This document shows, piece by piece, positions 26,618-44,167 of a stretch of 64,000 nucleotides of DNA (position 1 is its first letter; every line of letters begins with the position of its first letter). The notes beneath the pieces are model-generated. The model was given only the letters and a program-made list of their open reading frames with translations. It was not told where the DNA came from and searched no databases. The position numbers were made by a program, and so were the translations under genes. Source of the stretch: Deferribacteres bacterium (lineage in GTDB: Bacteria > Zhuqueibacterota > Zhuqueibacteria > Zhuqueibacterales > Geothermadaptataceae); NCBI GenBank assembly GCA_020633655.1, contig JACKDF010000005.1, positions 321,424 to 385,423 on the forward strand, in the 5' to 3' direction.

Positions 26618-26644
26618 ACTTTATTCACTTTATATGGAAATATT

Positions 26645-27790: not shown

Positions 27791-27898
27791 AACCCGGATT
27801 ACTTACCGTTAAACTCCTTGTTTCTTTTTTTATTTTAAATTTTAAATTAATGAGCTGAGAAAAAAACAATATTCAAAAAAACAAAAACGGAGAAAGCA

Positions 27899-29701: not shown

Positions 29702-31004
29702 AAACAACACGCGTTTGCTCGCAGTGGAACTCCTGAGCACGAATGAAATCGAAGGGGATTATATAAATCATCTCATTGAAAAATCGCGTGGTTTTCAACA
29801 ACTTTCTCCACTGGATCGGGCCCTGTGTCTGGAAATCGTTTATGGCGTGTTGCGTAACAAACGCCATCTCGATGCTGTTATAAAAAATTATATTACAAGG
29901 GGCTATGCATCTTTTTCGAGCCAATTGAAAAATATACTGCGCACGGCCTTTTATCAGCTTTTATTTTTAGAAAAAATCCCTGATTATGCTGTACTTTCTG
30001 AATCAGTGGAAATCGCGAAGCGCACTGTTTCTTTGCGCTACGCCCGGCTGGTCAATGGGGTATTACGCAATTTTCAGCGAAATCCTTATCGTCTGGAAAA
30101 GCCAAAGGATGATAATTTATCCGCTTTAGCCGAGTACTACAGTCATCCCGAATGGCTGGTGAAACAATTTGCCCGGCAGTTTGGCAAAAATGAACTACAG
30201 GCTTTTTTGATTGCAAACAACCAAACCCAATCCGTCTATGTCCGACGCCTGAAGGACATGAAAATGACCGATGCCTTTTCCGAATTTCTTGAACCTGTAG
30301 CAGATTTCCCTCGCTATTTTGAAGTAAAATCGCACTCGGCATTGCAGAATATACCCGGATGGAAAGACGGCGCTTTTTGTGTGCAGGATCCCGGTTCCGG
30401 TATGGCAATTGAATTACTGGCACCACAAGCCGGGGAGACAATTGTCGATTTGTGCGCGGCACCCGGAGGAAAAACAATGGCGATTTCCGCTTTGGTTGGT
30501 GAGAAGGGACATGTGGTGGCTGTTGAATCGGTGAAAAAACGTTTGAATATCCTTGAAGAAAATACAGCCAAAACTGGATTTGAAAATGTGAAATCTATTC
30601 TGGCAGACGCACGCGAGTTTAAGACACAACCAGCCGATGCAGTTCTCATCGATGCGCCATGCAGTGGTTTAGGGGTTATGGCCCGGCGAGCCGATCTGCG
30701 ATGGCAAAGAAAACCCTACGATTTAAAACCATTAGTTCAACTTCAAAAAGAGATACTTGCCAATGCGGCGACCCTTGTGAAACCTGGCGGACGCCTGGTT
30801 TATTCAACTTGTACTATTGATAAATCGGAGAACGAGGAAGTCATAGCAGATTTTTTAGAAAAAAATTCGCATTTTACTATCGAAAAAGCCACTGAATTCA
30901 TCGATAAAAAGTATGTAACCAACAATGGCTTTGTTCGTACATGGCCGCACAAACATGCGATCGATGGGAGCTTTTCAGCACGTTTGCGAAGAAATAATAA
31001 TTAA
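29688..31004 (+). CDS. rsmB: 16S rRNA (cytosine967-C5)-methyltransferase RsmB
   Basis: NusB-like N-terminal domain plus a methyltransferase domain (DLCAAPGGKT, DAPCSGLGV, YSTCT). The ORF-track start at 29511 lies inside fmt. I place the start at the in-frame TTG at 29688, after GGGGAAAGG, giving a ~14-nt overlap with fmt. Start-codon confidence is moderate. Confidence 0.88.
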   Translation: MALHKNNTRLLAVELLSTNEIEGDYINHLIEKSRGFQQLSPLDRALCLEIVYGVLRNKRHLDAVIKNYITRGYASFSSQLKNILRTAFYQLLFLEKIPDYAVLSESVEIAKRTVSLRYARLVNGVLRNFQRNPYRLEKPKDDNLSALAEYYSHPEWLVKQFARQFGKNELQAFLIANNQTQSVYVRRLKDMKMTDAFSEFLEPVADFPRYFEVKSHSALQNIPGWKDGAFCVQDPGSGMAIELLAPQAGETIVDLCAAPGGKTMAISALVGEKGHVVAVESVKKRLNILEENTAKTGFENVKSILADAREFKTQPADAVLIDAPCSGLGVMARRADLRWQRKPYDLKPLVQLQKEILANAATLVKPGGRLVYSTCTIDKSENEEVIADFLEKNSHFTIEKATEFIDKKYVTNNGFVRTWPHKHAIDGSFSARLRRNNN

Positions 31005-31014
31005 CATGGAATAA

Positions 31015-31773
31015 GTGATGAATATCATTCTGGACAAAATAAAATCTCTCTGGTATTACAAATTTATCCGTGTCACAGTATACCTTTTTGCCGCGATGGT
31101 TGTCTTTGGATTTCTCATGGATCTCATCGTCATGCCCATTTATACGAAACATGGTGAAGCAATTCCATTGCCGGATGTAACGAAAATTCGGTATGAAGAT
31201 GCAAAGCGTGCGCTGGCGGCAGAAGGATTTGTTATCGTCAAAAGCGAAGAGCGATACGACTCACGTTTTCCAATGGGTTATGTCATCAAGCAAGTACCCG
31301 AGCCGGGAGCGACGGTGAAATCAGGCCGCCGAGTTAGCGTTATTCTCAGCAAAGGAGAACGCCGCTTTGAAATGCCGAAGATCGTTGGCATCTCTGACCG
31401 GGACAGCAAACTGGTGCTCTCGCGTTTTGGACTTCGACTTGGTAAAAAGAACTATGAATATTCCAGTTATTATCCCAAAGGTGTGGTGACACGGCAATCC
31501 ATCACTCCCGGTGTGGAAGTGCCGATGAACACATTTATCGATTTGACCATCAGTCTGGGTTCTGTTCCGAGTGTCTTCATCGTGCCCTCGGTGGAAGGGC
31601 GAACACTGGACGATGCGCGGGATATCATTGAGCAGGCAGGTTTGCAGATCGGCTCAATTCGCTACCAGCCAATGAATGCGTTGTTGCCGGAAACGGTGAT
31701 AAAGCAATCGCTGCAAAGTGGCACCGAAGTACCCAAGGATACGATGATCAATCTTGTCGTATCGAGTTTGTAG
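31015..31773 (+). CDS. membrane-anchored PASTA-domain protein (three PASTA repeats, no kinase or PBP domain)
   Basis: 252 aa. N-terminal TM helix followed by three ~65-aa repeats with the PASTA pattern (P.v.G....A...L...Gf.v......s....g.V..Q.P..G..v..g..v.l..S.G). Confidence 0.8.
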   Translation: MMNIILDKIKSLWYYKFIRVTVYLFAAMVVFGFLMDLIVMPIYTKHGEAIPLPDVTKIRYEDAKRALAAEGFVIVKSEERYDSRFPMGYVIKQVPEPGATVKSGRRVSVILSKGERRFEMPKIVGISDRDSKLVLSRFGLRLGKKNYEYSSYYPKGVVTRQSITPGVEVPMNTFIDLTISLGSVPSVFIVPSVEGRTLDDARDIIEQAGLQIGSIRYQPMNALLPETVIKQSLQSGTEVPKDTMINLVVSSL

Positions 31774-31779
31774 TAGAAC

Positions 31780-31808
31780 TTGACAACCGGTCAATTAATC
31801 TTTATATT
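31780..31808 (+). promoter_or_regulatory. sigma-70-type promoter candidate (TTGACA - 17 nt - TATATT)
   Basis: ttgaca at 31780-31785, a 17-nt spacer, then tatatt at 31803-31808. It is ~50 nt upstream of the ATG at 31859. Confidence 0.5.
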
Positions 31809-31858
31809 CAAATTCAAATTTACGGCATTTCCCCGATTTATACAGGTCGAGGTGACTC

Positions 31859-32329
31859 ATGAAATTTACCAAAGCAGACATCGAGAATATAGCAGAAGCA
31901 CTTAATGCGACATACAAAGATATGGGCACCAATTATCGTCTCACCATTACTGGTGAAGAGGACAGACGAATTAGCCTCGAAATTTACCCGCACACCAAAA
32001 TCGGGAGTCATGAAGGCAGCCTGCTCATCGTTTATACCTCAAGTGCCTTTCTGCAATTGCAATTTTGTACCGGCTATGTCATCAGTAAAATGCTGGGGGA
32101 AGTCACCTTTGTCGCGCAACACATGGGGCGGATTAGCGGACTCATAGTCGAAGCGGGCGCTGGATGCTCCCTTTACTCAAACGTAGATGAATCTGTGCTT
32201 TCCGGTGATTTCACACGTCTCGGTCCGGAAGTGATGATGTCGAGTATCGCTCTTTCCTTATCAGAGCATCTGCTCGGAAGCGGTGATGAGCGCCTTGACG
32301 CCGATGCACTTGTTGATGGAGATGACTGA
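31859..32329 (+). CDS. hypothetical protein (156 aa, acidic C-terminus)
   Basis: Clean ORF with an ATG start, in the same orientation as and 21 nt upstream of xerD. No motif recognised. Confidence 0.55.
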   Translation: MKFTKADIENIAEALNATYKDMGTNYRLTITGEEDRRISLEIYPHTKIGSHEGSLLIVYTSSAFLQLQFCTGYVISKMLGEVTFVAQHMGRISGLIVEAGAGCSLYSNVDESVLSGDFTRLGPEVMMSSIALSLSEHLLGSGDERLDADALVDGDD

Positions 32330-32350
32330 CGGGTATCACCGCAGCTTTTT

Positions 32351-33298
32351 ATGAAAATGTCGCAACGACAAGATTTCCTGTCTGAACTCATCGATGAGTT
32401 TTTAGCTTTCCTTGCTGCTGAAAAAAATCTGGCGCAAAATACAATTGAAGCCTACGGCCTCGATCTTGCCCACTACCACACCTGGCTCAGCGAAAAAAAA
32501 GTTCCTTCCCTCAACGCAATCGAAACGAAAGACATACGCGAATTTTTATCTGCCCTCGACGAATTAGAGCTTGCTGAAGCAACGGTTGCGCGCAAATGCG
32601 CAGCGATTCGCATGTTCCATCGCTACGTACACGCTGAAAACTATTGTGCCTCTGATCCCGCTCAATTAATTTCCTATAAACGCCGCAAAAGTTATTTGCC
32701 GGATGTACTGGAAATACACGAAATTGAAGCTGTTTTTGATTGTGTCGTCCCGGATACTGCTTTGGGATTACGCGACATGGCCCTTCTGGAATTTTTATAT
32801 GGAACCGGATGCAGAATATCCGAGGCACTGAATTTTGAACGCAGTGATTACTTTGCTGAAGAGAGTTTTGTGCAATTGACTGGCAAAGGCCGCAAAACAC
32901 GGCTTGTGCCGATAGGGGAGGTGGCTGTTCAGGCTATGCAGGATTATCTGCGCTACGGCCGTCCCGAATTGGCAAATCCTTTTATTTCACAGGATGTCGT
33001 TTTCCTCAATAATCGCGGACGAAAACTTTCCCGCATGGGGGCATGGAAAATTATACGAAAATATCTGGAAGCCGCCAAAATTGAAAAACATGCGTCCCCG
33101 CATACTTTCCGCCACAGCTTCGCAACCCATTTGCTCGAAGGAGGCGCTGATTTACGCGCTGTCCAGGAGATGCTTGGGCACGCCAGTATTTCCACGACTC
33201 AGATTTACACCCATATAGATCGCAGTTTTTTGCACACAGTCATACGTGATTTCCATCCGTTGGAGCAGCGCGGCAGGATGAAATCCAAATCGAAATAA
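32351..33298 (+). CDS. xerD: tyrosine site-specific recombinase XerD/XerC
   Basis: 315 aa. N-terminal SAM-like domain (FLAFLAAEKNLAQNTIEAYGLDL). Catalytic region ...GCRISEAL...HTFRHSFATHLLEGGADLRAVQEMLGHASISTTQIYTHI. Confidence 0.88.
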   Translation: MKMSQRQDFLSELIDEFLAFLAAEKNLAQNTIEAYGLDLAHYHTWLSEKKVPSLNAIETKDIREFLSALDELELAEATVARKCAAIRMFHRYVHAENYCASDPAQLISYKRRKSYLPDVLEIHEIEAVFDCVVPDTALGLRDMALLEFLYGTGCRISEALNFERSDYFAEESFVQLTGKGRKTRLVPIGEVAVQAMQDYLRYGRPELANPFISQDVVFLNNRGRKLSRMGAWKIIRKYLEAAKIEKHASPHTFRHSFATHLLEGGADLRAVQEMLGHASISTTQIYTHIDRSFLHTVIRDFHPLEQRGRMKSKSK

Positions 33299-33307
33299 GG
33301 AGTGAGT

Positions 33308-34072
33308 ATGATACTCGCAATGGATGTCGGTAACACCAATATAACTTTAGGATTATACGAAAACGGCCAGCTGACCCAGAGCTGGCGCCTTTCGAGCCAG
33401 GTGGCCCGCACGGAAGATGAAATATGGGTGTTTATGAACATGCTCGGGCGAGGTGCCAATATTGATCTCAGCGAAGTGCATGGCATAGCCCTGGGCTCCG
33501 TTGTCCCCTCGGTGACTGTGTCATTGTTACGTCTGATCAACAAACACCTGAAGGTCAAAGTTGTGGAAGTCTCATCGGATATTGAGTTGGGCATAACCAT
33601 AAAGAACGTTGATCCCCACACGGTTGGTGCGGACCGTATTTGCAATGCCGTGGCGGGCTTTGAAAAATATGGCGGCCCTCTCGTCATTGTGGATTTTGGG
33701 ACGGCAACCACCTTTGATATCGTTTCGGATTTGGGCGAATACCTTGGGGGAATTATCGCTCCCGGCGTGGAAAGCACTGCAAAGAGCCTGCACCATCTCG
33801 CTGCCAAACTGCCTATGGTTGATTTAAAATTTCCCGAAAACATAGTCGGTCGCTCCACGGAAAGCAGCATGCAGTCGGGTTTGATGTTTGGTGGCGCGGA
33901 AATGGTCGAAGGCCTTTTGCGCCGATTGCGTGGTGAAATGGGAGAAAATATCCGGGTTATCGCAACGGGCGGTTTGGCGCCGGTCTTGTTGCCGGAGTTG
34001 CCTTCAGTAGAAAAGGTCGAACCAACTTTGACGCTCAGGGGTTTGTATGAGATTTATTTGAAAAACAGGTGA
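33308..34072 (+). CDS. coaX: type III pantothenate kinase
   Basis: MILAMDVGNTNITLGLY, ADRI (GADRICNA), IVDFGTATTFD. The ATG at 33308 lies 5 nt after AAGGAG; the ORF track starts at the GTG at 33302. Confidence 0.93.
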   Translation: MILAMDVGNTNITLGLYENGQLTQSWRLSSQVARTEDEIWVFMNMLGRGANIDLSEVHGIALGSVVPSVTVSLLRLINKHLKVKVVEVSSDIELGITIKNVDPHTVGADRICNAVAGFEKYGGPLVIVDFGTATTFDIVSDLGEYLGGIIAPGVESTAKSLHHLAAKLPMVDLKFPENIVGRSTESSMQSGLMFGGAEMVEGLLRRLRGEMGENIRVIATGGLAPVLLPELPSVEKVEPTLTLRGLYEIYLKNR

Positions 34073-34118
34073 GCTTTTTAGCAAAGCGTAAGCAGCAGGG
34101 TAGGTTTATGAGTCAGCC

Positions 34119-34772
34119 TTAAACCGTATTATTTACATTAGTAATAAACTCGTGCAACTTGTTTTTGTCCAGTTCATTATTCGATCGCACACCCGAGCAG
34201 ACATCGACGCCAAAAGGTTTTACAGCATTAATCGCCATAGCAACATTGTCCGGTTTTAAACCTCCAGCGAGGAACACAGGAATATCAACGAGGGTAACTA
34301 TTTCTCTACTCAGATTCCAGTCATGTGTTCTTCCCGTGCCACCAAGCTCCTTGATTTCAAGCGCCTGGTTGCCAGAATCTAGAAGTAGTGCATCGACGTA
34401 ATTTGCACTTTCTTTCGCTTCCTTTATGGATTCTTCCCCCACCACATGAATGACTTGTATAAGTGATACTCCCGGCAGGTTTTTTCTTAGAATGCGATAG
34501 TGATCCGTGCTAATACGGTCACATATTTGAATTGTGTTGACACCGCATTTTCTCTGTTGTGCTATTATGCCCTGCACATCTGTCCGTGAAGTGAGAAGAA
34601 ATGTTCCTATGGGTGGTGGTACCCTTGATACGATTTGGGCTATTAAGGATTCAGATATGACGCCCGGGCCGCTTGGCATACTCGAAACGAAACCCAAAGC
34701 GGAAGCACCATACTTTATGGCCGTCGATGCTTCTTCATGGGAACTTATACAGCATATTTTTACTCGTAGCAT
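34119..34772 (-). CDS. trpF: phosphoribosylanthranilate isomerase (orphan trpF, no other trp genes nearby)
   Basis: 217 aa. MLRVKICCISSHEEA..., IQICD/VIHV blocks, LLDSG...GGTGRTHDW, FLAGGLKPDNV, GVDVCSGV. Confidence 0.85.
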   Translation of the reverse strand: MLRVKICCISSHEEASTAIKYGASALGFVSSMPSGPGVISESLIAQIVSRVPPPIGTFLLTSRTDVQGIIAQQRKCGVNTIQICDRISTDHYRILRKNLPGVSLIQVIHVVGEESIKEAKESANYVDALLLDSGNQALEIKELGGTGRTHDWNLSREIVTLVDIPVFLAGGLKPDNVAMAINAVKPFGVDVCSGVRSNNELDKNKLHEFITNVNNTV

Positions 34773-34807
34773 ATTTTTATTGCCTGACGTATCCTTGACT
34801 GGCGCCT

Positions 34808-35050
34808 TTAAGCGTCCGGTACAAGAGGCTTTTTATGTTTGTTCTTTTCGATTATTGTGTCATATGCATTTTTCAGGTCTCGATAGTGCCACTGATCAAA
34901 AATATGGGCTCGCTGGAGTAAAATAGGTGCAAATAATATTGAAGTTAATCCAATAAAAAGCCAATTAAACTTGTGGTCATTTTTTATATACAGAGCATTT
35001 GTAATAAATGAAGTGCCGACTATTAGGCATGATAATGCAAGATTAGCCAC
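34808..35050 (-). CDS. hypothetical small membrane protein (80 aa, two predicted TM helices)
   Basis: GTG start; hydrophobic segments LALSCLIVGTSFI and WLFIGLTSILFAPILL. No family recognised. Confidence 0.4.
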   Translation of the reverse strand: MANLALSCLIVGTSFITNALYIKNDHKFNWLFIGLTSILFAPILLQRAHIFDQWHYRDLKNAYDTIIEKNKHKKPLVPDA

Positions 35051-35076
35051 TGCCTTTCCCTGATTTATTGCCTATT

Positions 35077-35137
35077 AACATTAATCTGCCCATAGTTTTT
35101 TCTTTCCGGTGATGTGTAATATGGGCCAATTAATGTT
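35077..35137 (-). repeat. attC-like imperfect palindrome S1
   Basis: AACATTAATCTGCCCATA (35077-35094) pairs with TATGGGCCAATTAATGTT (35120-35137), with a 25-nt loop. On the minus strand it ends GTTAATA. Confidence 0.45.
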
Positions 35138-35268
35138 TTATCATTTTCATTAAAAGTCAAACGTGTTGTACAGCGATGAATGGTTAAATTCGGGTCTGCT
35201 ACTTTCCGATGATCATTTATAAATTCTAAAATCAATAAAGGGCTATCTGGTTCATTTACAATTATTTT

Positions 35269-36288
35269 TTATTGTCCTTTGCCCTTGTCTTTCTTTTTTA
35301 ATTTCTTCACTTCTTTATCAAAATCAGAAATGAATTTTTCATCCTGAATAATGCGGAATTTTTCATATTCCTTTTCAGCGGTTTCTTTGGCAACGGCGGC
35401 AGAAACTTGGCCGGGGTTGTTCAACACATCGTATTGATTAAACTGCAGAAAGGCATCCAAACGTTCTGCCCATTCCTGCATTTTTATTGGGATTTGCCGT
35501 TCTGCCTGTAATTCTGCAAAATCCAAATACATGGTAACAATACGGTTAAGATTGCGGATTTCTTTTTCATTAAGATAATTCTTGGCAACGGTAACATCAG
35601 ATTTTAAGACTTTACCTTTAGGTGCGTTTTTCCAGGTTGTCAATCCCATGTGGTCCTTAGCGGAATCTGCTCGCTGGGCAATTATTTCAGCTGCTGTGTT
35701 TCCGGTGATGGCCCAGTGCAATTTATTCTGGACTGTTTTGTAGAAAAGTTCGGTTACTGTAGACTGCGGATCGTAATCAATGCTACATTGGGCATAAATA
35801 TCCGTAATCTTCTGGTAGAAGCGGCGTTCACTGGCACGAATTTCCCGGATGCGTTCCAGCAATTCATCAAAGTAATCTTTGCCAAACAATGTGCCGCCCT
35901 GTTTTAGGCGCTCATCATCCAAAGCAAAACCTTTGGTGATAAATTCCCGCAATACGCGGGTTGCCCAGATACGGAACTGCGTTGCCCGGGAAGTATTTAC
36001 CCGATAGCCGACTGAAATAATAGCGTCCAGATTATAATATTCGAGATTGCGGGAGACCTGGCGCTCACCTTCGGTTTGAACTGTCAAGATTTCTTTGACA
36101 GTTGCTTTTTTGCCTAACTCATTTTCTTTGAAGATATTTTGCAGGTGGTAACTGATATTTTGTTTGGTTGCCCCGAACAGTTCAGCCATTTTATTGATTG
36201 TTAACCAAACTGTCTCTTCCCGTACAAGGACTTCTACCTTAACATTACCCTGCGGTGTTGTATATAAAATGATCTCAGAATTTTTCAT
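35269..36288 (-). CDS. rhuM: RhuM family (virulence-associated, Fic/DOC-neighbourhood) protein
   Basis: 339 aa. Characteristic N-terminus ...VKVEVLVREETVWLTINKMAELFGATKQNISYHLQNIFKENEL...YNLDAIISVGYRVNTSRATQFRIWATRVLREF. Confidence 0.88.
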   Translation of the reverse strand: MKNSEIILYTTPQGNVKVEVLVREETVWLTINKMAELFGATKQNISYHLQNIFKENELGKKATVKEILTVQTEGERQVSRNLEYYNLDAIISVGYRVNTSRATQFRIWATRVLREFITKGFALDDERLKQGGTLFGKDYFDELLERIREIRASERRFYQKITDIYAQCSIDYDPQSTVTELFYKTVQNKLHWAITGNTAAEIIAQRADSAKDHMGLTTWKNAPKGKVLKSDVTVAKNYLNEKEIRNLNRIVTMYLDFAELQAERQIPIKMQEWAERLDAFLQFNQYDVLNNPGQVSAAVAKETAEKEYEKFRIIQDEKFISDFDKEVKKLKKKDKGKGQ

Positions 36289-36545
36289 GTTTCACTTTCA
36301 ATTTCATAATTCTCATACGCTTCTTTTGACAACGGAAAAGCCGGATCAATCACCAGAACTTCGTCGTAGTTGAGTTGGTAGAGTTTGTAAACCAGAAAAT
36401 CAATTTTAGATTTTAGTTTTTTAAATTCTTTCTCACTGATTTCTGGTTGAAGTAGTTGATTTACAATTTTAGTAAACACATTTTGTTTGTCACTGGATGC
36501 TGTTTTAATTGGGATTTTTTTCCAATCATCAGGATAAAAATCCAA
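36285..36545 (-). pseudogene. 3'-terminal fragment of a restriction-modification (type IIG/TaqI-like or BREX-type) methyltransferase gene
   Basis: The C-terminal ~85 aa of ORF 36285..36761 (DFYPDDWKKIPIKTASSDKQNVFTKIVNQLL...KSKIDFLVYKLYQLNYDEVLVID) match the conserved tail of such enzymes. The upstream half of that ORF is just the antisense of the intron 5' end. Its stop overlaps the rhuM start (ATGA). Confidence 0.5.
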
Positions 36546-36743
36546 GTGTGTGCCCGGCATGGCACGTGTGTATTTTGAATATCGAAATATACGCAGATTA
36601 TCCAGAGGGTGCAAGTCCCTTATGGGCAAGTTGGCGAAGCCCATTAGCAAGCCGCAAGGGTGTTCCGGGTGACCGGAAATCTGAAGGAAGCGATACTGCA
36701 AGAATCTGTGCGGAGGAATACAAACTGCATATGAGGCATAGCA

Positions 36744-38018
36744 TTGTGGGTAAGTAACCACTTCTTTACAAAGCCCGTAGCCAACAAACTTTGCTATGTA
36801 GATGCAGCAGGAGTCGACGGCAGATCAGTTAACAATCTGTCTTCCTATTTGAAAACGCACTGGAGTTCGATCAAAGAAAGGGTGGAGTCTGGCCGCTATG
36901 AACCTGATGCGATATTGGGTGTGGAAATTCCCAAGAGCAATGGGAAAACCCGGCTTTTGGGTGTTCCAACAGTTGTTGACCGCTTGCTGCAGCAGGCATT
37001 ACATCAACAACTGAGCCCGATATTCGAAAAGGATTTTCAGGAACATAGCTATGGTTTTCGTCCGAACCGCAATGCACATCAGGCGATTAAACAGGCGCAC
37101 AAGAACATCAATGACGGCTATCAGGATATCGTCGATATCGATTTGAAGAGCTTCTTTGATGAAGTGAGCCATGAATTGCTGATGACATTGATATACCGAA
37201 GAGTGAAGTGCCCACTGACCTTGAAACTGATTCGGAAATTTCTTCGAGCACCTATTCAAAAGAATGGGAAACTGGAGAAACGACGCAAAGGCGTGCCACA
37301 GGGTAGCCCACTGAGTCCTTTACTGTCCAATATCATTCTGAATGAATTGGATAAGGAATTGACGAAGCGTGGCCACCGGTATGTGAGATACGCCGACGAT
37401 TTCAGTGTGTACCTCAAGAGCAAGACGGCAGCGAGACGTGTTGGAAATAGTATTTACTTGTTCCTACGCGATGAACTCCGTTTGCCGATTAATCGCGAGA
37501 AAAGTGGAATCCGTCGTCCGAGTAAGTTTTACATGCTTGGTTATGGTTTTGTGCCGGTATTTTGCAAAGGCTCAAAGGGACAGTACCAACTGGTTGCGGA
37601 CATCTTTGCCTTGAAAAGGTTAAAAGAGAAGATCAAATGGATCACCCGCAAGACGACCCCGATGACCTTTGATGAACGGATAGCAAAACTGAACCAGGTA
37701 ATGAAAGGTTGGATGCACTATTTCAAGTACGCAAATATGCATGCAAAACTGCGAGTCATTGATGTCTGGATACGCCGTCGTTTGCGTGGTTGTATCTGGC
37801 ATGATTGGAAGAAACCGAACCGCAAGATGAAGAATCTGATGCGTTTGGGAATTCCGAAAGGGATGGCTTATGCATGGAGCAGAACGCGTATGGGAAGATG
37901 GGCTGTGGCTTGTAGTCCGATATTGAGTACAACGATCACGATTGGTCGTTTGGAAAGTCGTGGCTATGTGTCGCTGGAATCATACTATCTGAAAGTTCGG
38001 AAGACTGTAGGTTCGTGA
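36744..38018 (+). CDS. group II intron reverse transcriptase/maturase (no endonuclease domain)
   Basis: 424 aa. AAGVDG, RLLGVPTVVDRLLQQA, YGFRPNRNAHQA, the YADD box (VRYADDFSVY), and maturase domain X (MKGWMHYFKYANM...RRRLRGCIW). The N-terminal ~20 aa are atypical and the start is a TTG. Confidence 0.9.
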   Translation: MWVSNHFFTKPVANKLCYVDAAGVDGRSVNNLSSYLKTHWSSIKERVESGRYEPDAILGVEIPKSNGKTRLLGVPTVVDRLLQQALHQQLSPIFEKDFQEHSYGFRPNRNAHQAIKQAHKNINDGYQDIVDIDLKSFFDEVSHELLMTLIYRRVKCPLTLKLIRKFLRAPIQKNGKLEKRRKGVPQGSPLSPLLSNIILNELDKELTKRGHRYVRYADDFSVYLKSKTAARRVGNSIYLFLRDELRLPINREKSGIRRPSKFYMLGYGFVPVFCKGSKGQYQLVADIFALKRLKEKIKWITRKTTPMTFDERIAKLNQVMKGWMHYFKYANMHAKLRVIDVWIRRRLRGCIWHDWKKPNRKMKNLMRLGIPKGMAYAWSRTRMGRWAVACSPILSTTITIGRLESRGYVSLESYYLKVRKTVGS

Positions 38019-38051
38019 ACCGCCGTGTACGTGATCCGTACGCACGGTGGT
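38018..38051 (+). ncRNA. group II intron domain V
   Basis: AACCGCCGUGUACG-UGAUC-CGUAC-GC-ACGGUGGU: 34 nt, two helices with a 2-nt bulge on the 3' strand. It starts at the RT stop codon. Confidence 0.75.
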
Positions 38052-38238
38052 GTGAGAGGCGCACTCCGGTCTAACGGGGCCGGAGCCGCCTACTCGATTA
38101 GCATGTATTTCGTTTCTTTTTATTTATTCTTTAAAAATATTTATAAATCTCCAATTTGCTTCCGCATGAATGCGTAACAAGTCTATTACCTTGAAATACA
38201 GCGATTTTTCTCGTTTTTGATGCCGCTGTTTACCAAAC

Positions 38239-40845
38239 TTAACTTTTGTAAACCATTGCATGTTCATCGGGATTGAACCCTTTTGGGAATTTGGTATCAC
38301 CATCAAAATAAGCACCCTTAAGCTTAGTTCTGTTTAAATTCGTTCTACTGAGGTTTGTTGCTCTGAGATCAGCTCCGCTGAGGTTTGCGTTTTTAAGCCT
38401 GACCCTATCAAGTTTTGCATTTCGAAGATTTGTGTTAGTAAGAAAGGCTCCACTGAGATTAGCTTCACTTAAGTTTATTCCACTGAGGTCCATCCCGCTG
38501 AGATTCACTCCGTTGAGTTTACTTTTGCTAAGATTTACTCTATTAAGGTTTGCTCCCCTAAACTTGGCCATATAAAAATCACTACCGCTGAGATTTGCTC
38601 CACTAAAGTCAATCTCACTCAAATCAGCTCCTTTAAGGATAACTCCACTCAGATTGGCTCCTTGATAATCAACTCCACTGAGATTAATTTTCATTAAGTC
38701 AGTTCGCTTTAGATTTGATTTTTTATTATTTATTCCATTAAATTTCATTCCCTTGAGATTAGCTTGCTTTAGATTTGATGCTTTATTATTTATTCCATCA
38801 GGTATAATTTTTCTTATATCAGTTTGTTTTTTTTTATCTTTTATTATACTATTATCGGTAAAAATAATTTCATTTAAATTGACTCCATTATGATCGATCT
38901 CTTTAATGTCTATTCCGTGAAAATTAGTTTGAAAAAGAATGCTGCCTTTCAGGTTGATTCCTTGGATATTAGCATCCTGTAAATCAGCATTACTGAGATT
39001 AGCCATACTGAAATTTGCTCCATTGAGGATAGCTTTACAAAGTTTAGCTCCTTTGAGATTTGAATAACTGAGTTCAGCATTTGTTAAAATAGAACTAGTA
39101 AGATTTGCCCCAGCAAGACTGGTATTATTGAGATTAGCACTTTTGAGATCAGCATTGCTAAGATTAGTTCCTTCCAGATTTGCTCCTTTAAGATCAGCAT
39201 TACTTAAGCAGATACCTTCAAGATCAGCACCACTGAGATAAGCTTCATTAAGTATACTATCGCTTAGGTTGGCATTACAAAGAATTACTTCACTAAGAGT
39301 TGCATTATTTAATTTGGCTCTACGAAGATCTGCTTTTCCTAGGTTAGCTTCACTGATGACAGCACCTTTTAGATCTGCATCCCTAAGATTTGCTTCAGTG
39401 AGTACAGCTTCCATGAGATTAACATTATTTAAATTAGCACCCATCAGGTTTGCTCTAACTAGTTTAAGTCCACTTAGATTGCAATCACTGAAATTCAATC
39501 CAGTAAGGTCTGCTTCGCTGAGATCTATTTCTTGACTATAATGTAACTTAACTAATTCAGCGACAAATTTTTTTATTTGATCTGTCCAATCAAGAAAAAC
39601 GCGATCTTTTACTGGTAATTTAACAAAGTAATTTATGAAAAGGAATTCAAGGATTGATCTATGGGAAAACTTGTAATTCCCATAACCATCTCTATTTAAG
39701 AGGGATCGAGAACTGAGTTCAAGTTCATTTAGATCAATTTTATGAGTTAAAGCGAAAGGTACTAGCTCATGTCGTGGAATTTGACCATTATTTTCCTTTT
39801 GATAGCGATATAGGTGATTTGCAAGTGCTTCAGAAAATCGTCGGAGTGCGACTTTATCACTTATGCGTTCACGGTTGATCCAATGTATAATAATTTCTTC
39901 ATAGATATCATAACTATTTTTATATTCTTTATTAGGATCCATAAAACTCGACATATATTTTAACAACATTGGACGCAAAGCAAGGCTTGGTGCAGCTGAA
40001 ATGATTTGCCAAGCTTTTCTTCGCAGTTTATAATTTAAAATAGAGTATTTTTTCTTGATAAATTTTTGTACCTGCTCATCATTAAATGGAAGCAAGTATT
40101 GAATTGTAAACATTCTGTATCCATCACTTTGATCGGCATTGATGTTTGGTATTGAAGTTTTTCGTTTTATTGCTGCTGAATTAGGAAAAAATTGTGTACG
40201 GCTACTGATTAAAACTCTATTGAAACCTTCTGTTATATCTACCAACTGATTATAACGTGTATTAATACTCTCTATTGCAAATGGGTCTTCATCAAAAGCA
40301 TCGAGAAAAAGAATTGTATTTTTTTTATTCTCTATGTTTTTGATACATTGATCTACATTTTTTGCGTTAAGTCTGAGTACAATAATTTGTTTTTTGCTAA
40401 ATTTCTTATGTCGATAATTACGCATAAGTATATTAATCAAGGCAGCCGTTTTCCCGGTACCAGAATCTCCTAGTAAATACATATGTCGATTCTTTGCCCC
40501 TTCAGACAGAAATTCATCTATTTTTGTAAATAGTTTTTCATGTTTTTTCTCTCCATAGATTTTCTTAAGGTCCTCAGTATAAGATGGGTCACTCGGTGAA
40601 CAATACGGTTCAATATAAATATCAGTATAGCTTTTAATAGTTTCTTCATCAAAAAACTCAAACGTTATTTCATTGTTAATAATTTTTAACGCTTTATTGT
40701 CTTTCCATTTAGTTTTTAACTCTAAAATAGTTTTTATAATTATCAGTATAGTACTGATTCCCCCTATTATTTTTAAAATGGTAAATTGTTTTATATCGAA
40801 TATGTTTGTTAGAAGACTAATTATATCCTGGTTGTGAAAAAACAT
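38239..40845 (-). CDS. STAND NTPase: N-terminal TM helix, NACHT-type P-loop module, long C-terminal pentapeptide-repeat array
   Basis: 868 aa. TM helix at ~aa 22-42. Walker A LLGDSGTGKTAAL, Walker B ILFLDAFDE, then VLISSRTQFF and LLPFNDEQVQKFI (NACHT order). From ~aa 445 there are about 80 A(D/N)LxG-type pentapeptide units, interrupted once by a Lys-rich linker. Confidence 0.85.
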   Translation of the reverse strand: MFFHNQDIISLLTNIFDIKQFTILKIIGGISTILIIIKTILELKTKWKDNKALKIINNEITFEFFDEETIKSYTDIYIEPYCSPSDPSYTEDLKKIYGEKKHEKLFTKIDEFLSEGAKNRHMYLLGDSGTGKTAALINILMRNYRHKKFSKKQIIVLRLNAKNVDQCIKNIENKKNTILFLDAFDEDPFAIESINTRYNQLVDITEGFNRVLISSRTQFFPNSAAIKRKTSIPNINADQSDGYRMFTIQYLLPFNDEQVQKFIKKKYSILNYKLRRKAWQIISAAPSLALRPMLLKYMSSFMDPNKEYKNSYDIYEEIIIHWINRERISDKVALRRFSEALANHLYRYQKENNGQIPRHELVPFALTHKIDLNELELSSRSLLNRDGYGNYKFSHRSILEFLFINYFVKLPVKDRVFLDWTDQIKKFVAELVKLHYSQEIDLSEADLTGLNFSDCNLSGLKLVRANLMGANLNNVNLMEAVLTEANLRDADLKGAVISEANLGKADLRRAKLNNATLSEVILCNANLSDSILNEAYLSGADLEGICLSNADLKGANLEGTNLSNADLKSANLNNTSLAGANLTSSILTNAELSYSNLKGAKLCKAILNGANFSMANLSNADLQDANIQGINLKGSILFQTNFHGIDIKEIDHNGVNLNEIIFTDNSIIKDKKKQTDIRKIIPDGINNKASNLKQANLKGMKFNGINNKKSNLKRTDLMKINLSGVDYQGANLSGVILKGADLSEIDFSGANLSGSDFYMAKFRGANLNRVNLSKSKLNGVNLSGMDLSGINLSEANLSGAFLTNTNLRNAKLDRVRLKNANLSGADLRATNLSRTNLNRTKLKGAYFDGDTKFPKGFNPDEHAMVYKS

Positions 40846-40920
40846 TTTACTATTTTGATCCTATTTTTAGTAATTCTCATTTTGATCAAATTACCTACCA
40901 CCCCACCTGAGACTGATGCT

Positions 40921-40983
40921 AACGTTGAAGTCAGCGGCATGTGGAGCTTGCGGAAGCCCCACATGCCTCTGGACTGACAGGTT
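40921..40983 (-). repeat. attC-like imperfect palindrome S2
   Basis: AAC-GTTGAAGTCAGCGGCATGTGG (40921-40944) pairs with CCACATGCCTCTGGACTGACAG-GTT (40959-40983), with an inner GCTT-gcgg-AAGC hairpin. It starts 5 nt after the stop of the 93-aa ORF. On the minus strand it opens ATATAAC and closes GTTAGCA. Confidence 0.5.
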
Positions 40984-40987
40984 ATAT

Positions 40988-41269
40988 TTATTGCCATTCG
41001 GTGAAATTCAAATAACCTAGATACATAAAAAATAATGTACAAGCAGGGTATGCCAACATTTTTATCTTGTTATTTATCTTACCTAATTCAGGATGAGGTC
41101 TCATACCCAGCCAACATGATACAAAACACAGCACTAAGCCAAACAACAAACAGACACTATCAATGACCATGTTGCTTGAGTAGTAAACTGGAACTAGCAG
41201 CAAGAATCCTGCGTAAATAACAAAATCCGCTGGCTTTATACCCAACCATTCTTTAGTCGATTCTTTCAT
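40988..41269 (-). CDS. hypothetical small membrane protein (~93 aa, three hydrophobic segments)
   Basis: The ORF track gives 40988..41308 from a GTG. The ATG at 41269 (MKESTKEWLGIKPADFVIYAGFLLLVPV...) is more plausible. No family recognised. Confidence 0.45.
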   Translation of the reverse strand: MKESTKEWLGIKPADFVIYAGFLLLVPVYYSSNMVIDSVCLLFGLVLCFVSCWLGMRPHPELGKINNKIKMLAYPACTLFFMYLGYLNFTEWQ

Positions 41270-41284
41270 GTTATTCCCATAAAA

Positions 41285-41423
41285 ATATAACGTTAACGTG
41301 ATGCTCACCTGCTGGCGGGCTTAACAGCACAAAACATAAATAAATTATCAAAACTTCAAATACTGCACTGATCGTGCTGAAATTGCCGCCCTGCCCGCCA
41401 GTCAGGTGCAGCAATAGTTAGGT
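41285..41423 (-). repeat. attC-like imperfect palindrome S3
   Basis: CTCACCTGCTGGCGGGC (41304-41320) pairs with GCCCGCCAGTCAGGTG (41393-41408), with a 72-nt AT-rich loop. On the minus strand it opens ACCTAAC (41423-41417) and closes GTTAACGTTATAT (41297-41285). Confidence 0.5.
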
Positions 41424-41450
41424 GAAGTCAGTAGTACTTTTTAAAAAAAT

Positions 41451-44024
41451 TTAAAGAAATATAATTTCCTTGGGTACCCCATTTTCAAATTCTATCATCA
41501 ACCTCTTATCAAAATGATTATTAGTAAAAGTTACATGAAAATCTATATACTTTTTCAGTCCATCGCCAAATGCAACATTTCCAGTTTGTTGAAAGATATG
41601 ATCCATTTTAGAACTAATGTCCTGTATACTATCTAACTTTGCTTGCGTTTTATTTTGCTCAGCAATCATAATTGACTGAACTGATATTTCACATATTTTA
41701 CAAACTTGATCAGGTTGAATATCTGTATTCTCAATAGAAGTGAATCCCAGCATTTCATTTTTATTTAATAATTTCAAATTAGTTAAGACTGAGCCTGATG
41801 TATTCTTAATACTAATTATAAATTTTCCTGCTAAAACATCAAAATTTCCAATTTTTTCGATAACACATTTTAATTGATTAACTTTATTAATTTCAGGAAT
41901 ACTCTTAGTTTTAATAAAATTATTTTTTATTTCGTAACTATTGGTATTGAGCGACAATACCAAATCGTCATATTTTGAATAAAATTCATTTACTATTTCT
42001 TGTTTTGAGAGTTTGTTTTTACGTTCTTTTACAAAGCTCGATAACAAGCTTTCTTCTTTAGTAAATGTTGAATCAGATAACTTCTCAAATGAATCTAGAA
42101 TTTCAGGTGCTAATTTTTCTACAAGGATAATAGTTTCAGTCGTATCTTGTAGATAATCTGGCATATTCGCAGTAAGACAAAATAGTAAAATATTTGTCCA
42201 TGCCAATTCGGTGTCATTAGTCATTAAGTAGTTAAGACATAGTGTCCTATAGACTGATGCGAAAAGAGGTTTAAGACCAATAGCCTTTTTAGCAAATTCT
42301 ATAGATTTGTTATGTATTGATTTAATATAATAAAGCTGTGAGAGTTTAATATAGGGATACGGATTATTTGGAGCAAGTTCTAATGCCGCATTATAATAAT
42401 TAAGAGCCTGTTCGATATTATCTTTACGTTCATAAACTCTCCCAAGTTGAAAAAAAATCACAGGATCTGAAGGAGCTATTTCTTTCGCTTCCATAAGGAT
42501 TTCTATACAATTATCAAAATTTGCACTAAAAAGATATGCATCTGATAATCGATAGTAACCTAACATTTCTTCAGGTTCTTTTCGTATATACTGACGAAAA
42601 TAGTGTATTGCTCCCTCATAGTCACCTTCTTTCATATAACTTGTACCTAAAAACAAAGATACTCCAGCATTTGTAGATTTTATTATATCTTCATTTTTTT
42701 TTATTATTTGCAGAATTTCATCTGGTGTAATATTTTTATTTTCAAGGAATTGATCCCATGCGCTTGAAGGAGCTCTTAATATTTGTTCAGCCAGACTATC
42801 ATTAAAAGAGTTTATATAAACAACATTATCTCTATGATCTTGAGATATATAAAAAAGCTCAAAATTATTTGTTTCGCTGATTCTCTCAACTTCATCTTCA
42901 AAAAATCCTATTGTAAATTTAAAATTGAAGTATCCAGAATATTTTGAGTTGAAATCAACTAGTATATTTTGACCATCTTTAGATTCTATTACTATATATT
43001 TATTTCCTAAAACAGAACTTATTTTCTTTTTTGGATCAAGATTAACATGAAAAATTTCCCTATCAAACACACCTTTGGCTAATGATCCTACTACAATTCT
43101 TCTTGGAAGCTTTTCATAATTATTTAAAATTAACTCAATTTTGTCAATAGAAATCTGTTTTTCACTTTTATTAAAGAAAAAGAATTTTATTGGATCTCTG
43201 AATCTATCCTCTGAATAACCTTCTAAAGGAAGTAACCGAACTTTCTTTAATATTCCTTTTTCGATACAGTATGCATATTTATATGGGGGAGTAAAATGAT
43301 AAGCCGTTTTAATTGAAAGAGATTTGGATATAAGGGGTTGTTCAAAGACATTTATTATAATATCTTTACTTGAAAATATTTTTGATGATTTGTCAGTGAA
43401 ATGAAGAGAAATATTGCTAGCTCCAACATTTTTCCCCTTAATAATCATACTAATTTTATGCGTGCTATTTTTGTTTAGTTTTACTAGCTGTTCTAAATTT
43501 AATAATTCTATTGATACTATTTGATGATTCATTGTTATAGAATGTAGTTTTATATTTTCAATATCGCGCGTTCCTGTATTTCTCAACATTATATCCAAAT
43601 TTAATTCTTCATGAACTTGAATCTTATATTGGGATTTGTTTTCAATATGAAAAACATCTAATTTTGAATCACTACTAGTAGTGCTGTTGTTTGTCATTCT
43701 ATCAATATTTAAACTATCTAATTGAATTTCGTCTCTATCCTGAATTTTGCTCTCAGAGTTACTATTTACATTGACTATCTCCAGTTCTTTTTCTCCAAAA
43801 TATTGATAGTATATTTCTGTTGCCTTATCAATATTTGTAAGAAGTCCTATTATAGTGGTAAAAAAAGCAATGATCACACTTAATTTTGCTATTAACCATT
43901 TTCTTGGATTTCTGTGTTGCCAACATTTTGAATATGAACTAGTTGATTTAAGTTTTCTATTACATTTCTTTCCTGATTTAAGTATATGTTCACATTGCTT
44001 GTAAGATAATATAGTTTTTTCCAT
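41451..44024 (-). CDS. hypothetical 857-aa protein: Cys/His-rich N-terminus, one TM helix, beta-rich region, TPR repeats, unknown C-terminal domain
   Basis: The N-terminus reads CEHILKSGKKCNRKLKSTSSYSKCWQH, and the TM helix is WLIAKLSVIIAFFTTIIGLL. TPR-like repeats span ~aa 465-610 (GDYEGAIHYFRQYI..., ALNYYNAALELAPNNPYPY...). The gene is very AT-rich. Confidence 0.7.
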   Translation of the reverse strand: MEKTILSYKQCEHILKSGKKCNRKLKSTSSYSKCWQHRNPRKWLIAKLSVIIAFFTTIIGLLTNIDKATEIYYQYFGEKELEIVNVNSNSESKIQDRDEIQLDSLNIDRMTNNSTTSSDSKLDVFHIENKSQYKIQVHEELNLDIMLRNTGTRDIENIKLHSITMNHQIVSIELLNLEQLVKLNKNSTHKISMIIKGKNVGASNISLHFTDKSSKIFSSKDIIINVFEQPLISKSLSIKTAYHFTPPYKYAYCIEKGILKKVRLLPLEGYSEDRFRDPIKFFFFNKSEKQISIDKIELILNNYEKLPRRIVVGSLAKGVFDREIFHVNLDPKKKISSVLGNKYIVIESKDGQNILVDFNSKYSGYFNFKFTIGFFEDEVERISETNNFELFYISQDHRDNVVYINSFNDSLAEQILRAPSSAWDQFLENKNITPDEILQIIKKNEDIIKSTNAGVSLFLGTSYMKEGDYEGAIHYFRQYIRKEPEEMLGYYRLSDAYLFSANFDNCIEILMEAKEIAPSDPVIFFQLGRVYERKDNIEQALNYYNAALELAPNNPYPYIKLSQLYYIKSIHNKSIEFAKKAIGLKPLFASVYRTLCLNYLMTNDTELAWTNILLFCLTANMPDYLQDTTETIILVEKLAPEILDSFEKLSDSTFTKEESLLSSFVKERKNKLSKQEIVNEFYSKYDDLVLSLNTNSYEIKNNFIKTKSIPEINKVNQLKCVIEKIGNFDVLAGKFIISIKNTSGSVLTNLKLLNKNEMLGFTSIENTDIQPDQVCKICEISVQSIMIAEQNKTQAKLDSIQDISSKMDHIFQQTGNVAFGDGLKKYIDFHVTFTNNHFDKRLMIEFENGVPKEIIFL

Positions 44025-44086
44025 TTTTATCCTCTTATGATATTGTTAATTCATAAAATCTAAAAATGTAATATTCATAATCAAAC

Positions 44087-44167
44087 ACCTAACTTGTTTC
44101 TCACCGACTGGGAGAGGAAAGTTATAGCTTGTAAAAACTTGTCGGTGAGGAAAATGACTTGTTTTTT
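44087..44167 (-). repeat. attC-like imperfect palindrome S4
   Basis: TTTCTCACCGAC (44097-44108) pairs with GTCGGTGAGGAA (44141-44152), with a 32-nt loop. On the minus strand it opens AAAAAAC (44167-44161) and closes GTTAGGT (44093-44087). Confidence 0.5.

Follow-up and report, generated by a model that had tools for sequence, protein, structure and literature searches.

A 64,000-nt stretch of a candidate division KSB1 genome (the window) carries on its (+) strand what looks like a group II intron with too short a 5′ segment, and the question is whether this is a working retroelement, a naturally compact one, or the remains of one. Judged by its sequence, the segment 36548-38098 belongs to class C (IIC) of the group II introns, a known kind of element and not a new one. 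We consider it, with a probability of roughly 0.9, to be a dead copy, an ordinary decayed retroelement that bears an internal deletion and persists as an immobile fossil. Its parts and the flanking features are collected in Table 1.

The intron features go far beyond chance. The Rfam model RF02001 (group-II-D1D4-3) matches positions 36663-36828 with 94.5 bits (E=7e-18), and RF00029 (D5/D6) matches 38018-38098 with 38.9 bits (E=1e-5), just below its gathering score of 40. The end signals of a group II intron are present, namely GUGUG at 36548, a bulged A at 38092 and AU as the last nucleotides (38097-38098). So are the sequence features on which an earlier note on this DNA had relied: GTGTGTGCCCGGCATGG at 36546, AGGGTGCAAGTCCC at 36606-36619, TCTGAAGGAAGCG at 36680-36692 and the AAGVDG codons at 36804-36821. 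The ORF 36744-38018 (+) contains the Pfam domains RVT_1 (8e-42) and GIIM (8e-19) but neither HNH nor any other nuclease domain, which agrees with the proposal of an En-less RT/maturase; it occupies domain IV and is truncated at its N-terminus. Among solved structures the protein is closest to the GsI-IIC RT (6AR1, 2e-107), followed by 7UIM (7.5e-100); the latter entry is described no more closely than as a group II intron RT/maturase, and we take it to be the E. rectale IIC intron protein. The introns of E. rectale and O. iheyensis belong to class C. In a neighbour-joining tree the window's protein groups with IIC IEPs against RmInt1.

The RNA leads to the same class. The hallmarks of IIC introns are a D5 in which CGC replaces AGC and the distal stem is 2 bp shorter, and an 11-nt D1 bulge with a conserved AGGAA (PMC1702495). 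The D5 of the window, 31 nt in length (CCGCCGUG...CACGGUGG), has CGC at 38021-38023 and a short distal stem, its helix occupying 38020-38050 where about 38018-38051 had been proposed. The D1 bulge is represented by UCUGAAGGAAG at 36680-36690, with its AGGAA aligned to the RF02001 consensus. With the GsI-IIC RT as the best solved match, these two hallmarks bear out the original description of the element as class C-like.

The ends of the intron had to be moved. The start, first placed at 36546, is at 36548 (GUGUGCCCGG); the preceding GT is exon and is found before the intron at every independent site. The end lies at 38098 instead of 38093, all relatives sharing ...CCTACTCGAT followed by T. Rather than a D6 ending in TAC, the Rfam alignment shows UGAG-A-GG base-paired to CC-UA-CUCG with AU after it, from which the A at 38092 (the A of "TAC") emerges as the bulged branch-point A. 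The ATTAGCA that had been likened to an attC box straddles the 3′ splice site, and is made up of the last 2 intron nucleotides and the first 5 nucleotides of the 3′ exon.

Table 1. Features of the intron remnant and its flanks (positions in the window).
Feature	Position	Strand	Remarks
C-terminal 86 codons of Eco57I-type (type IIG) restriction-modification gene	36285..36547	-	cut at intron 5′ junction
5′-exon hairpin GGATTTTT / AAAAATCC, 16-nt loop	36512..36543	+	directly upstream of IBS1
IBS1 AAGT, last 4 nt of 5′ exon	36544..36547	+	complementary to ACUU 36760-36763 in D1 loop; putative assignment
Group IIC intron remnant	36548..38098	+	1551 nt; full-length relatives 1822-1847 nt; homology of relatives from GTGTGCCCGG to ...CTACTCGAT
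Retained 5′ domain I (intron nt 1-256)	36548..36803	+	RF02001; gap-free against relatives, 87-93% identity
Inside retained D1	AGGGTGCAAGTCCC 36606-36619, GUGA hairpin, IIC AGGAA bulge 36685-36689	+	RF02001 alignment
8-nt D1 hairpin loop with putative EBS1 ACUU (36760-36763)	36758..36765	+	RF02001 loop; single-site covariation with exon
Deletion junction TGCAGCAGG	36803..36811	+	microhomology common to D1 site and AAGVDG codons
RT/maturase coding remnant, 404 codons and stop	36804..38018	+	RVT_1, GIIM, YADD intact; 91-94% identical to P0001-P0006
Domain V, 31 nt, CGC triad 38021-38023	38020..38050	+	RF00029 alignment and direct sequence reading
Domain VI and last two intron nt, branch-point A 38092	38053..38098	+	RF00029; ...CCTACTCGAT conserved in all relatives
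First 3′-exon nt T (IBS3)	38099..38099	+	T at +1 in 14/14 3′ junctions of relatives
Exon sequences flanking the intron, joined	...AAAAATCCAAGT (5′ side) then TAGCATGTATTT... (3′ side)	+	intron removed

A complete six-domain ribozyme (D1-D6) is not contained in this segment, since nucleotides ~256-264 of D1 run straight into RT codon ~24. In nine fetched loci, which represent seven distinct full-length introns, the D1 site and the AAGVDG codons are 291-366 nt farther apart. In the DNA alignment the window and the locus L003 jump from D1 to AAGVDG, whereas L001, L002, L004, L005 and L009 retain the end of D1, D2, D3, D4 and the ATG. The full-length relatives score 120-123 bits with RF02001, against 94.5 for the window, in whose alignment the outer helix, deprived of its true 3′ strand, has non-canonical partners. 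A match to RF01998 lies immediately 3′ of D1 in two of three relatives (L002 and L017); the window has none, even at E<=10. The proteins of the relatives, ~424 aa in length, begin with MIxxVxSxxNMxxAYxQVLxNKGAAGIDG, and that of the window matches them only from AAGVDG on. The longer relatives and the late onset of the protein match uphold the suspicion, voiced in the earlier note, of an internal deletion that fused mid-domain I to the RT N-terminus. Covariance models revealed no complete set of domains I to IV within the short 5′ segment, and the only other copy with so short a segment is L003, which represents the same locus.

Metagenome assemblies break or merge at repeats, and two related contigs (L013 and L014) do end inside the intron, so one might ask whether assembly error produced the short 5′ segment or whether, failing that, it is the natural compact architecture of this intron lineage. 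Both are scarcely credible. L003 comes from an independent ENA assembly and has the identical junction and the identical right flank, and the missing segment is kept by the seven full-length relatives. Among the best 120 of 8000 homologous proteins the fused N-terminus occurs only in P0067, again from this locus. The junction sequence is likewise absent from viral contigs and from all other fetched loci.

The sites that were joined read GTAGATGCAGC(A/C)GG on the left and GG(N)GC(N)GC(N)GG on the right, and the window is fused at their common TGCAGC(A)GG (36803-36811). Every relative has an imperfect 15-nt direct repeat at the deletion sites, with 10-12 of 15 positions matching by manual count. 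About 290-370 bp were lost between the short direct repeats TGCAGC(A)GG, one of them in domain I (intron nt ~257) and the other at the AAGVDG codons of the RT, perhaps by DNA slippage or by template jumping of the RT. Comparison with the relatives shows what was lost: domain I is without its 3′ end, domain II and the J2/3 linker with domain III are missing, domain IV has lost its 5′ arm along with the ribosome-binding site and ATG, and the protein lacks its first ~23 conserved residues. The labels of the deleted stretch (D1 closing strand, D2, J2/3 and D3) follow from the fixed D1-D6 order, the RF01998 matches and the architecture of the O. iheyensis intron; an RNAalifold prediction on four full-length relatives missed the canonical D1 closing helix and so was not used.

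An intact copy would be transcribed, fold into six RNA domains and be spliced out with the aid of the RT/maturase. The resulting RNA-protein particle would then reverse-splice into DNA just past a hairpin, a 4-bp EBS1-IBS1 and a 1-bp EBS3-IBS3 pairing serving for recognition of the site, and the RNA would be copied into DNA. Deprived of the lost parts, the catalytic core presumably cannot form and the protein would be without its native start. From the domains that are missing, we surmise that the window copy neither splices nor moves and should have lost both abilities.

Some protein could still be made from the chimeric ORF, which starts at a TTG (36744) inside D1, has GAGG 7 nt upstream of this codon and stays open for 404 codons past the junction. 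YADD and all family-invariant residues are intact in the remnant. Is the N-terminally shortened RT then a working gene kept by selection, either domesticated in a defence island or acting as maturase for other intron copies? The neighbours are defence-like (RhuM, the restriction-modification remnant and a STAND-pentapeptide protein), and of the 26 codons that differ between the window and L003, 22 differ synonymously and 4 non-synonymously. Even so, we judge such a role very unlikely. The synonymous excess was set aside as a sign of selection, the differences being confined to one central block: there are none in 36627-37060, none in 37839-38220 and 28 between, where the two diverge by 3.6%. 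A mosaic of this kind is more readily explained by a chimeric assembly, or by conversion of the copy from working paralogues, than by selection on it. L003 has a frameshifting 20-nt insertion, and the native start is gone together with the conserved N-terminus. The copy is antisense to all its neighbours, as had been recognised from the beginning; RhuM, the restriction-modification fragment, the pentapeptide-STAND gene and the TPR gene are all on the (-) strand. Promoter-like matches in the region do not exceed chance (3 found versus 5.1 expected). The exact window protein has no identical entry on record. The ORF 36744-38018 is best annotated as a group II intron RT remnant and not as a working gene.

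The window copy appears to have been inserted after a small hairpin, antisense, in the 3′ end of a restriction-modification gene of the Eco57I type. The AU-rich 8-bp hairpin proposed for this site (36512-36519/36536-36543) is real, though modest: as DNA it folds with -7.4 kcal/mol (z=-2.44), a value that 4 of 200 shuffles reach; its distance from the splice site is 4 nt and not 2, and these 4 nt are IBS1. Similar hairpins adjoin IBS1 in L006, L020 and L023, and not in all relatives. The putative AAGU/ACUU pairing comprises 4 bp and one covarying position, the relatives having ACAU in the loop and ATGT or TTGT in the exon. The target sites of related copies conform to (T/A)(T/A)GT/T, the last slash marking the insertion point, with AAGT/T in the window and TTGT/T or ATGT/T in the relatives. 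The right flank begins with AGCAT; this pairs with ATGCT at 36497-36501, so that the 5′-exon hairpin continues past the junction as it does in L001 and L006. An extension as good as this was obtained with only 8 of 150 random 3′ exons.

The left flank had been described as a truncated restriction-modification gene, and it is: the fragment of 86 aa corresponds to the C-terminal ~80 residues of proteins of 600-1300 aa with Eco57I, MmeI_Mtase and TaqI_C domains. The homology begins at the first 1-3 residues of the fragment and ends at the intron junction. When the intron is removed in silico, the frame hits a stop after 9 unrelated codons of the right flank, so the truncation point of the gene coincides with the 3′ boundary of the intron. 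A 158-aa ORF at 36285-36761 (-) is the tail of this gene reading on into intron antisense sequence, and should be annotated as such.

With the homology stopping at the intron junction, a rearrangement tied to the intron is likely, though unproven. The idea in the earlier note that the flanks stem from two original sites is made plausible by this same stop, yet it is unproven, and the extension of the hairpin across the junction is a weak hint to the contrary. Homologous recombination with a second copy in the same orientation may have deleted the DNA between the two, including most of the restriction-modification gene, and left a single intron whose 5′ and 3′ flanks stem from different sites. 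This would come in addition to the internal deletion, not in place of it, and we give it nearly even odds. It accounts for a fragment that is the extreme C-terminus of an Eco57I-type protein and for the stop so soon past the intron, and no N-terminal part of the gene is present at 44-52 kb. Comparable losses are seen in L020-L026, where the intron is identical and occupies a single locus but is followed by 3′ flanks that lack ~440, ~455 and ~717 nt, the gap beginning at the intron end or within 1-2 nt of it. The contig ends of L013 and L014 lie 80 nt and ~50 nt inside the intron, respectively, which suggests further copies, and flank shuffling between intron copies has been described (PMC7947834) and proposed for IIC-attC introns (PMC7923331). 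Against it, the 64-kb window holds no other intron copy or fragment, and scans of genome and metagenome contigs, which gave few close relatives, yielded neither a second copy nor an empty site. The AGCAT/ATGCT pairing hints weakly that the flanks belong together, and the 5′ and 3′ parts of the intron share their nearest relatives. We also considered that a single unequal crossover between two copies could have given rise to the internal deletion and the mismatched flanks alike; the two intron parts rank the relatives in the same order, which does not discriminate.

The gene may instead have been truncated earlier by an unrelated rearrangement, for instance the arrival of a low-GC island at 38.1-44.1 kb, and the intron then retro-inserted at the breakpoint. 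The GC content does fall to 26-37% from 38.2 to 44.1 kb. The site also offers the hairpin together with IBS1 (AAGT) and IBS3 (T), and the fold of the joined exons is slightly more stable than expected by chance. This order of events calls for a coincidental landing within 0-9 codons of the older breakpoint, and we regard it as possible, with the odds somewhat against it.

Losses of sequence are not confined to this copy. In this small sample, three independent copies (window/L003, L006 and L012) have each lost a block reaching from domain I into the RT gene, with microhomologies of 4-9 nt. P0010/L027, whose protein starts with MHW, was a candidate for a fourth; its DNA has the full 5′ region and a nonsense codon after GIDNR, and it is a point-mutated pseudogene. 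The L020-L026 locus shows several different deletions that start from the intron 3′ end, like the flank of the window. It is conceivable, though we think it improbable, that such deletions are non-random and caused by the intron itself, through template jumping of the RT or through local re-insertion followed by recombination between copies. If true, this IIC family would actively truncate adjacent genes and shuffle flanks in a separate lineage within uncultured phyla, in parallel with the cassette-forming role proposed for IIC-attC introns. The leads for genome reshaping are the TTGT/T-type targets in a non-attC IIC clade and the repeated deletions in and beside the intron. These side observations leave the identity of the feature unchanged, and the main value of the analysis lies in annotation. 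The copy itself offers a clean, base-resolved case of group II intron death, in which a microhomology deletion took away the catalytic core and the protein start together.

The closest known systems are the bacterial IIC introns, such as B.h.I1 of Bacillus halodurans and GsI-IIC of Geobacillus. They share with the window an En-less RT/maturase of ~420 aa, the D5 CGC triad with a short distal stem, the AGGAA bulge of D1, a 5′-exon hairpin, a 4-bp IBS1-EBS1 pairing (putative in the window) and a 1-nt IBS3 (PMC1702495). The window copy differs from them in having lost 3′ D1, D2, D3, the 5′ arm of D4 and the protein N-terminus, and its upstream hairpin is a weak AT-rich stem in a coding region, not a terminator.

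IIC-attC introns (S.ma.I2, Kl.pn.I3 and their relatives, from integron cassette arrays) insert at TTGT/T in the attC bottom strand, opposite to cassette transcription, and copies of that lineage have been proposed to exchange flanks by recombination (PMC7923331). The (T/A)(T/A)GT/T of the window family fits this target, the orientation is opposite to that of the neighbouring genes, and the joined exons of L001 and L006 rebuild an imperfect palindrome CTAAC...GT/TAG, like an attC bottom strand. In contrast, the neighbour-joining tree (100 bootstraps; a small reference set that does not include S.ma.I2 or Ge.s.I1) places the IEP of the window in a clade of its own family (100% bootstrap), outside the separate integron-borne clade of L030, L035 and L036 (100%), at ~40% identity. 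There is no integrase at the window's site. No attC was recognised there by a home-made scan that also missed the attC of the true class 1 integrons L028 and L036, so that this negative carries no weight.

As a fossil, the window copy resembles the RmInt1 copy in S. meliloti AK83, which has an internal deletion of nt 1520-1844, and the FRE652 remnant; in these, too, intact ends enclose an internal deletion or truncation (PMC4181065). The window copy belongs to another intron class and another host, its deletion runs from D1 to the RT N-terminus, and the microhomology at its junction is defined.

The window contains a group II intron encoding a reverse transcriptase (RT)/maturase. This decayed element is an ordinary representative of a known class of retroelements. 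The earlier note had diagnosed it correctly overall, with errors limited to boundary details, and each motif that it listed is found at its position in the sequence. Rfam model RF02001 (group-II-D1D4-3) matches the 5′ part with 94.5 bits (E=7e-18), and RF00029 (the D5/D6 model) the 3′ part with 38.9 bits (E=1e-5), slightly below its gathering score of 40. The ORF possesses RVT_1 (8e-42) and GIIM (8e-19) domains; a domain search found no nuclease domain in it. The solved structures closest to the protein of a full-length relative (P0004) are the GsI-IIC RT 6AR1 (2e-107) and 7UIM (7.5e-100), an entry labelled only group II intron RT/maturase, which we take to be that of the E. rectale IIC intron. 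Class IIC is characterized by a D5 with CGC in the basal stem and a short distal stem, and by an AGGAA bulge (PMC1702495). The window element has this CGC, a short distal stem and the AGGAA bulge and is of class IIC.

Coordinates in the window of the intron, its parts and its surroundings
Feature	Position	Strand
Group II intron	36548-38098	+
RF02001 match	36663-36828	
AGGAA bulge	36685-36689	
RT/maturase ORF	36744-38018	
D1 hairpin loop with ACUU	36758-36765	
Deletion junction	36803-36811	
Block diverging from second assembly	37061-37838	
RF00029 match	38018-38098	
CGC of D5 basal stem	38021-38023	
Branch-point A	38092	
158-aa artefactual ORF	36285-36761	-
ATGCT of 5′-exon hairpin	36497-36501	
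Left-side contig L013, matching part	26285-36627	
Low-GC region	34800-44100	
56-aa Cap15_CD_rec-like ORF	within 34800-44100	-
RhuM	within 34800-44100	-
Restriction-modification remnant	within 34800-44100	-
868-aa pentapeptide-repeat protein, STAND-type NTPase N-terminus	within 34800-44100	-
857-aa TPR protein	within 34800-44100	-

At every independent site the homology begins two bases ahead of GTGTGCCCGG, with a constant GT, and in one relative (L018) GTGAGCCCGG directly follows TTGT. From this we infer that the intron starts with GUGUG at 36548, which would make AAGU the last four exon bases (IBS1). AAGU is complementary to ACUU in an 8-nt hairpin loop of D1; in relatives the loop reads ACAU and the exon AUGU (4 bp) or UUGU (3 bp). 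The unique loop base of the window is matched by a unique exon base, a single covariation which lends modest support to the putative AAGU-ACUU pairing. In the Rfam alignment of D6, UGAG-A-GG pairs with CC-UA-CUCG, and the final two bases, AU, stay outside the pairing. This sets the intron end at 38098 and makes the A seven nucleotides from it the bulged branch-point A. All relatives end in ...CCTACTCGAT, followed by T(A/G). The Rfam alignment and the ends of the relatives thus correct the boundaries first proposed, 36546-38093. The supposed “D6 ending TAC” contains the branch-point A, and an “attC-box” ATTAGCA read in the right flank was a misreading of the intron 3′ end.

An internal deletion from D1 into the RT N-terminus, suspected from the sequence alone, is borne out by protein alignment, DNA alignment and Rfam. 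The RT has more than 8000 homologues, typically 424 aa long. In all 15 proteins aligned with it, the N-terminus is the conserved MIxxVxSxxNMxxAYxQVLxNKGAAGIDG or a shortened form; the window frame matches only from AAGVDG on, its first 20 codons being unrelated. Alignment with DNA of relatives fetched from independent loci reveals base-by-base agreement from GTGTGCCCGG to GTAGATGCAGC (intron nt ~257), after which the window passes straight into the AAGVDG codons. Here L001, L002, L004, L005 and L009 contain the remainder of D1, two more structured segments, ATG and 23 codons, so that 291-366 nt, varying by relative, are absent from the window. The joined points share the microhomology TGCAGC, or TGCAGCAGG given an ancestor whose left site was like that of L001 and whose right site was like that of L004, so that every position in the tabulated interval would fit as the junction. 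By our own count, the sequences at the two deletion sites of each relative are imperfect direct repeats of 15 nt (10-12 of 15 matches). RF02001 scores 120-123 bits on full-length relatives, with a clean outer helix, versus 94.5 bits in the window, where non-canonical pairs occupy the positions expected for the 3′ strand. RF01998 matches L002 and L017 directly 3′ of domain I; in the window it finds nothing up to E<=10. Going by the invariant order of D1-D6, the deletion took away the strand closing D1 on its 3′ side, D2, J2/3, D3 and the 5′ arm of D4, together with the ribosome-binding site, the start codon and ~23 N-terminal residues of the protein; the finer labels partly follow what we take to be the O. 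iheyensis intron layout, and an RNAalifold prediction did not show the canonical fold.

Junction and right flank recur in an independent ENA assembly of this copy (L003, 1618 nt), whose product (P0067) has the same fused N-terminus; among the 120 best of the >8000 homologues, this N-terminus is confined to P0067. The two assemblies differ by 28 substitutions and, in L003, a 20-nt frameshifting insertion with GCAAAAC repeats on either side, all inside one block (3.6% divergence), with 0 differences in the 434 nt before it and the 382 nt after. Of the 26 changed codons, 22 are synonymous. Such a block between identical ones indicates either gene conversion, with working paralogues as donors, or an assembly chimera. 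It gives no such indication of selection on the shortened RT gene, the differences being confined to that block.

Related copies carry lesions as well. L006:2836-4241 (KSB1 MAG JAJDAG010000004.1) has an independent internal deletion with its junction near 3005-3010, where D1 ...GGAGGAACAC is joined straight to RT codons (E)HWPCIKHQ (microhomology GAACAC); ~430 nt are missing and RF02001 is down to 33 bits. A third independent deletion leaves an intron of just 734 nt (L012:337-1070), with D1 ...CAGCTAT joined to RT ...YLRSKTA (microhomology CTAT) and a 21-nt insertion in D1. L020-L026, from JGI metagenomes and with an identical intron-encoded protein (P0079), are one intron at one locus. Their 3′ flanks are shortened (~440 nt in L025, ~455 nt in L024, ~717 nt in L022) by deletions which begin at or <=1-2 nt from the intron 3′ end, leaving a TonB-dependent receptor gene truncated; D6 is altered in L024 and the 5′ side rearranged in L023. 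These internal and adjacent deletions are leads, not findings on the window's intron. The full-length relative nearest to the window's intron, with a protein 92-94% identical (L002:5324-5414, L015:5349-6563, L016:3977-5209), is cut near the RT gene end (protein ends ...RRGSL), with a Transposase_mut gene directly downstream; D5 and D6 are absent from these contigs. Another copy (L027:195-320, 89% protein identity) is a pseudogene through a TAA codon directly after GIDNR, and the protein called from it (P0010) restarts at an internal ATG.

The intron is preceded by an 8-bp AT-rich stem (-7.4 kcal/mol; 4/200 shuffles as good) terminating exactly at IBS1. Comparable hairpins adjoin IBS1 at 4 of 10 independent sites and are absent at the others. 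The stem noticed earlier is thus real and consistent with IIC targeting, for which it is weak evidence alone. GTCC(G) lies exactly 20 nt (21 in L004) upstream of the insertion at five independent sites (L002, L004, L006, L017 and L018), three of which share GCTT-N6-GTCCG; the arrangement is too regular for chance and could belong to a common target structure. The motif is absent from the window's site.

All neighbouring genes are on the minus strand, confirming that the intron is antisense to them. The left flank codes for the C-terminal 86 residues of an Eco57I-type restriction-modification protein, which match the very end of proteins of 600-1300 aa bearing Eco57I, MmeI_Mtase, N6_Mtase and TaqI_C domains. 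This homology starts within 1-3 residues of the intron junction and, with the intron removed in silico, the frame enters 9 unrelated codons of the right flank and then a stop. This places the cut in the gene at the 3′ boundary of the intron; the missing N-terminal part was not found at 44-52 kb. The minus-strand ORF of 158 aa is artefactual, with antisense read-through of the intron 5′ end preceding the 86 real codons; part of it is annotated as a hypothetical protein (P0121) in an NCBI MAG. The cut favours an intron-linked rearrangement, most simply recombination with a second intron copy that exchanged flanks, a process described or postulated in other group II introns. Against this, AGCAT, with which the right flank begins, pairs with ATGCT and lengthens the 5′-exon hairpin across the junction; only 8/150 random 3′ exons do as well. 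We give the exchange slightly less than even odds, and insertion of the intron at an older breakpoint somewhat lower odds. The proposal that the flanks come from two sites is thus favoured by the cut gene and opposed by this pairing. L013 (KSB1 MAG contig JAGQII010000379.1, GCA_020431365.1), 99.95% identical to the window over 26285-36627, ends 80 nt inside the intron, and L014, a Logan contig with the right-side pentapeptide gene, ~50 nt inside its 3′ end (window ~38048, by coordinate arithmetic). The host is therefore a KSB1 bacterium, and contigs broken in this way usually signal that the intron ends are repeated, in the genome or the community. Flanked by trpF and by an ankyrin-repeat membrane protein, the low-GC region (26-44% vs ~46-50% around) resembles a variable or defence island.

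IIC-attC introns are reported to have the target consensus TTGT/T and an orientation opposite to neighbouring genes. The target sites of the window's family, (T/A)(T/A)GT followed by T(A/G), correspond to TTGT/T, and the window's intron shares the antisense orientation. The joined exons of L001 and L006 rebuild palindromes bounded by CTAAC...GT/TAG, that of L006 being 47 nt long. A small neighbour-joining tree places the family, which has members on Adhaeribacter plasmids, in a clade of its own (100%), apart from the clade that the integron-borne L030, L035 and L036 make up; identity between the two is ~40%. The window's family thus appears to behave like the IIC-attC introns but is not assigned to that lineage.
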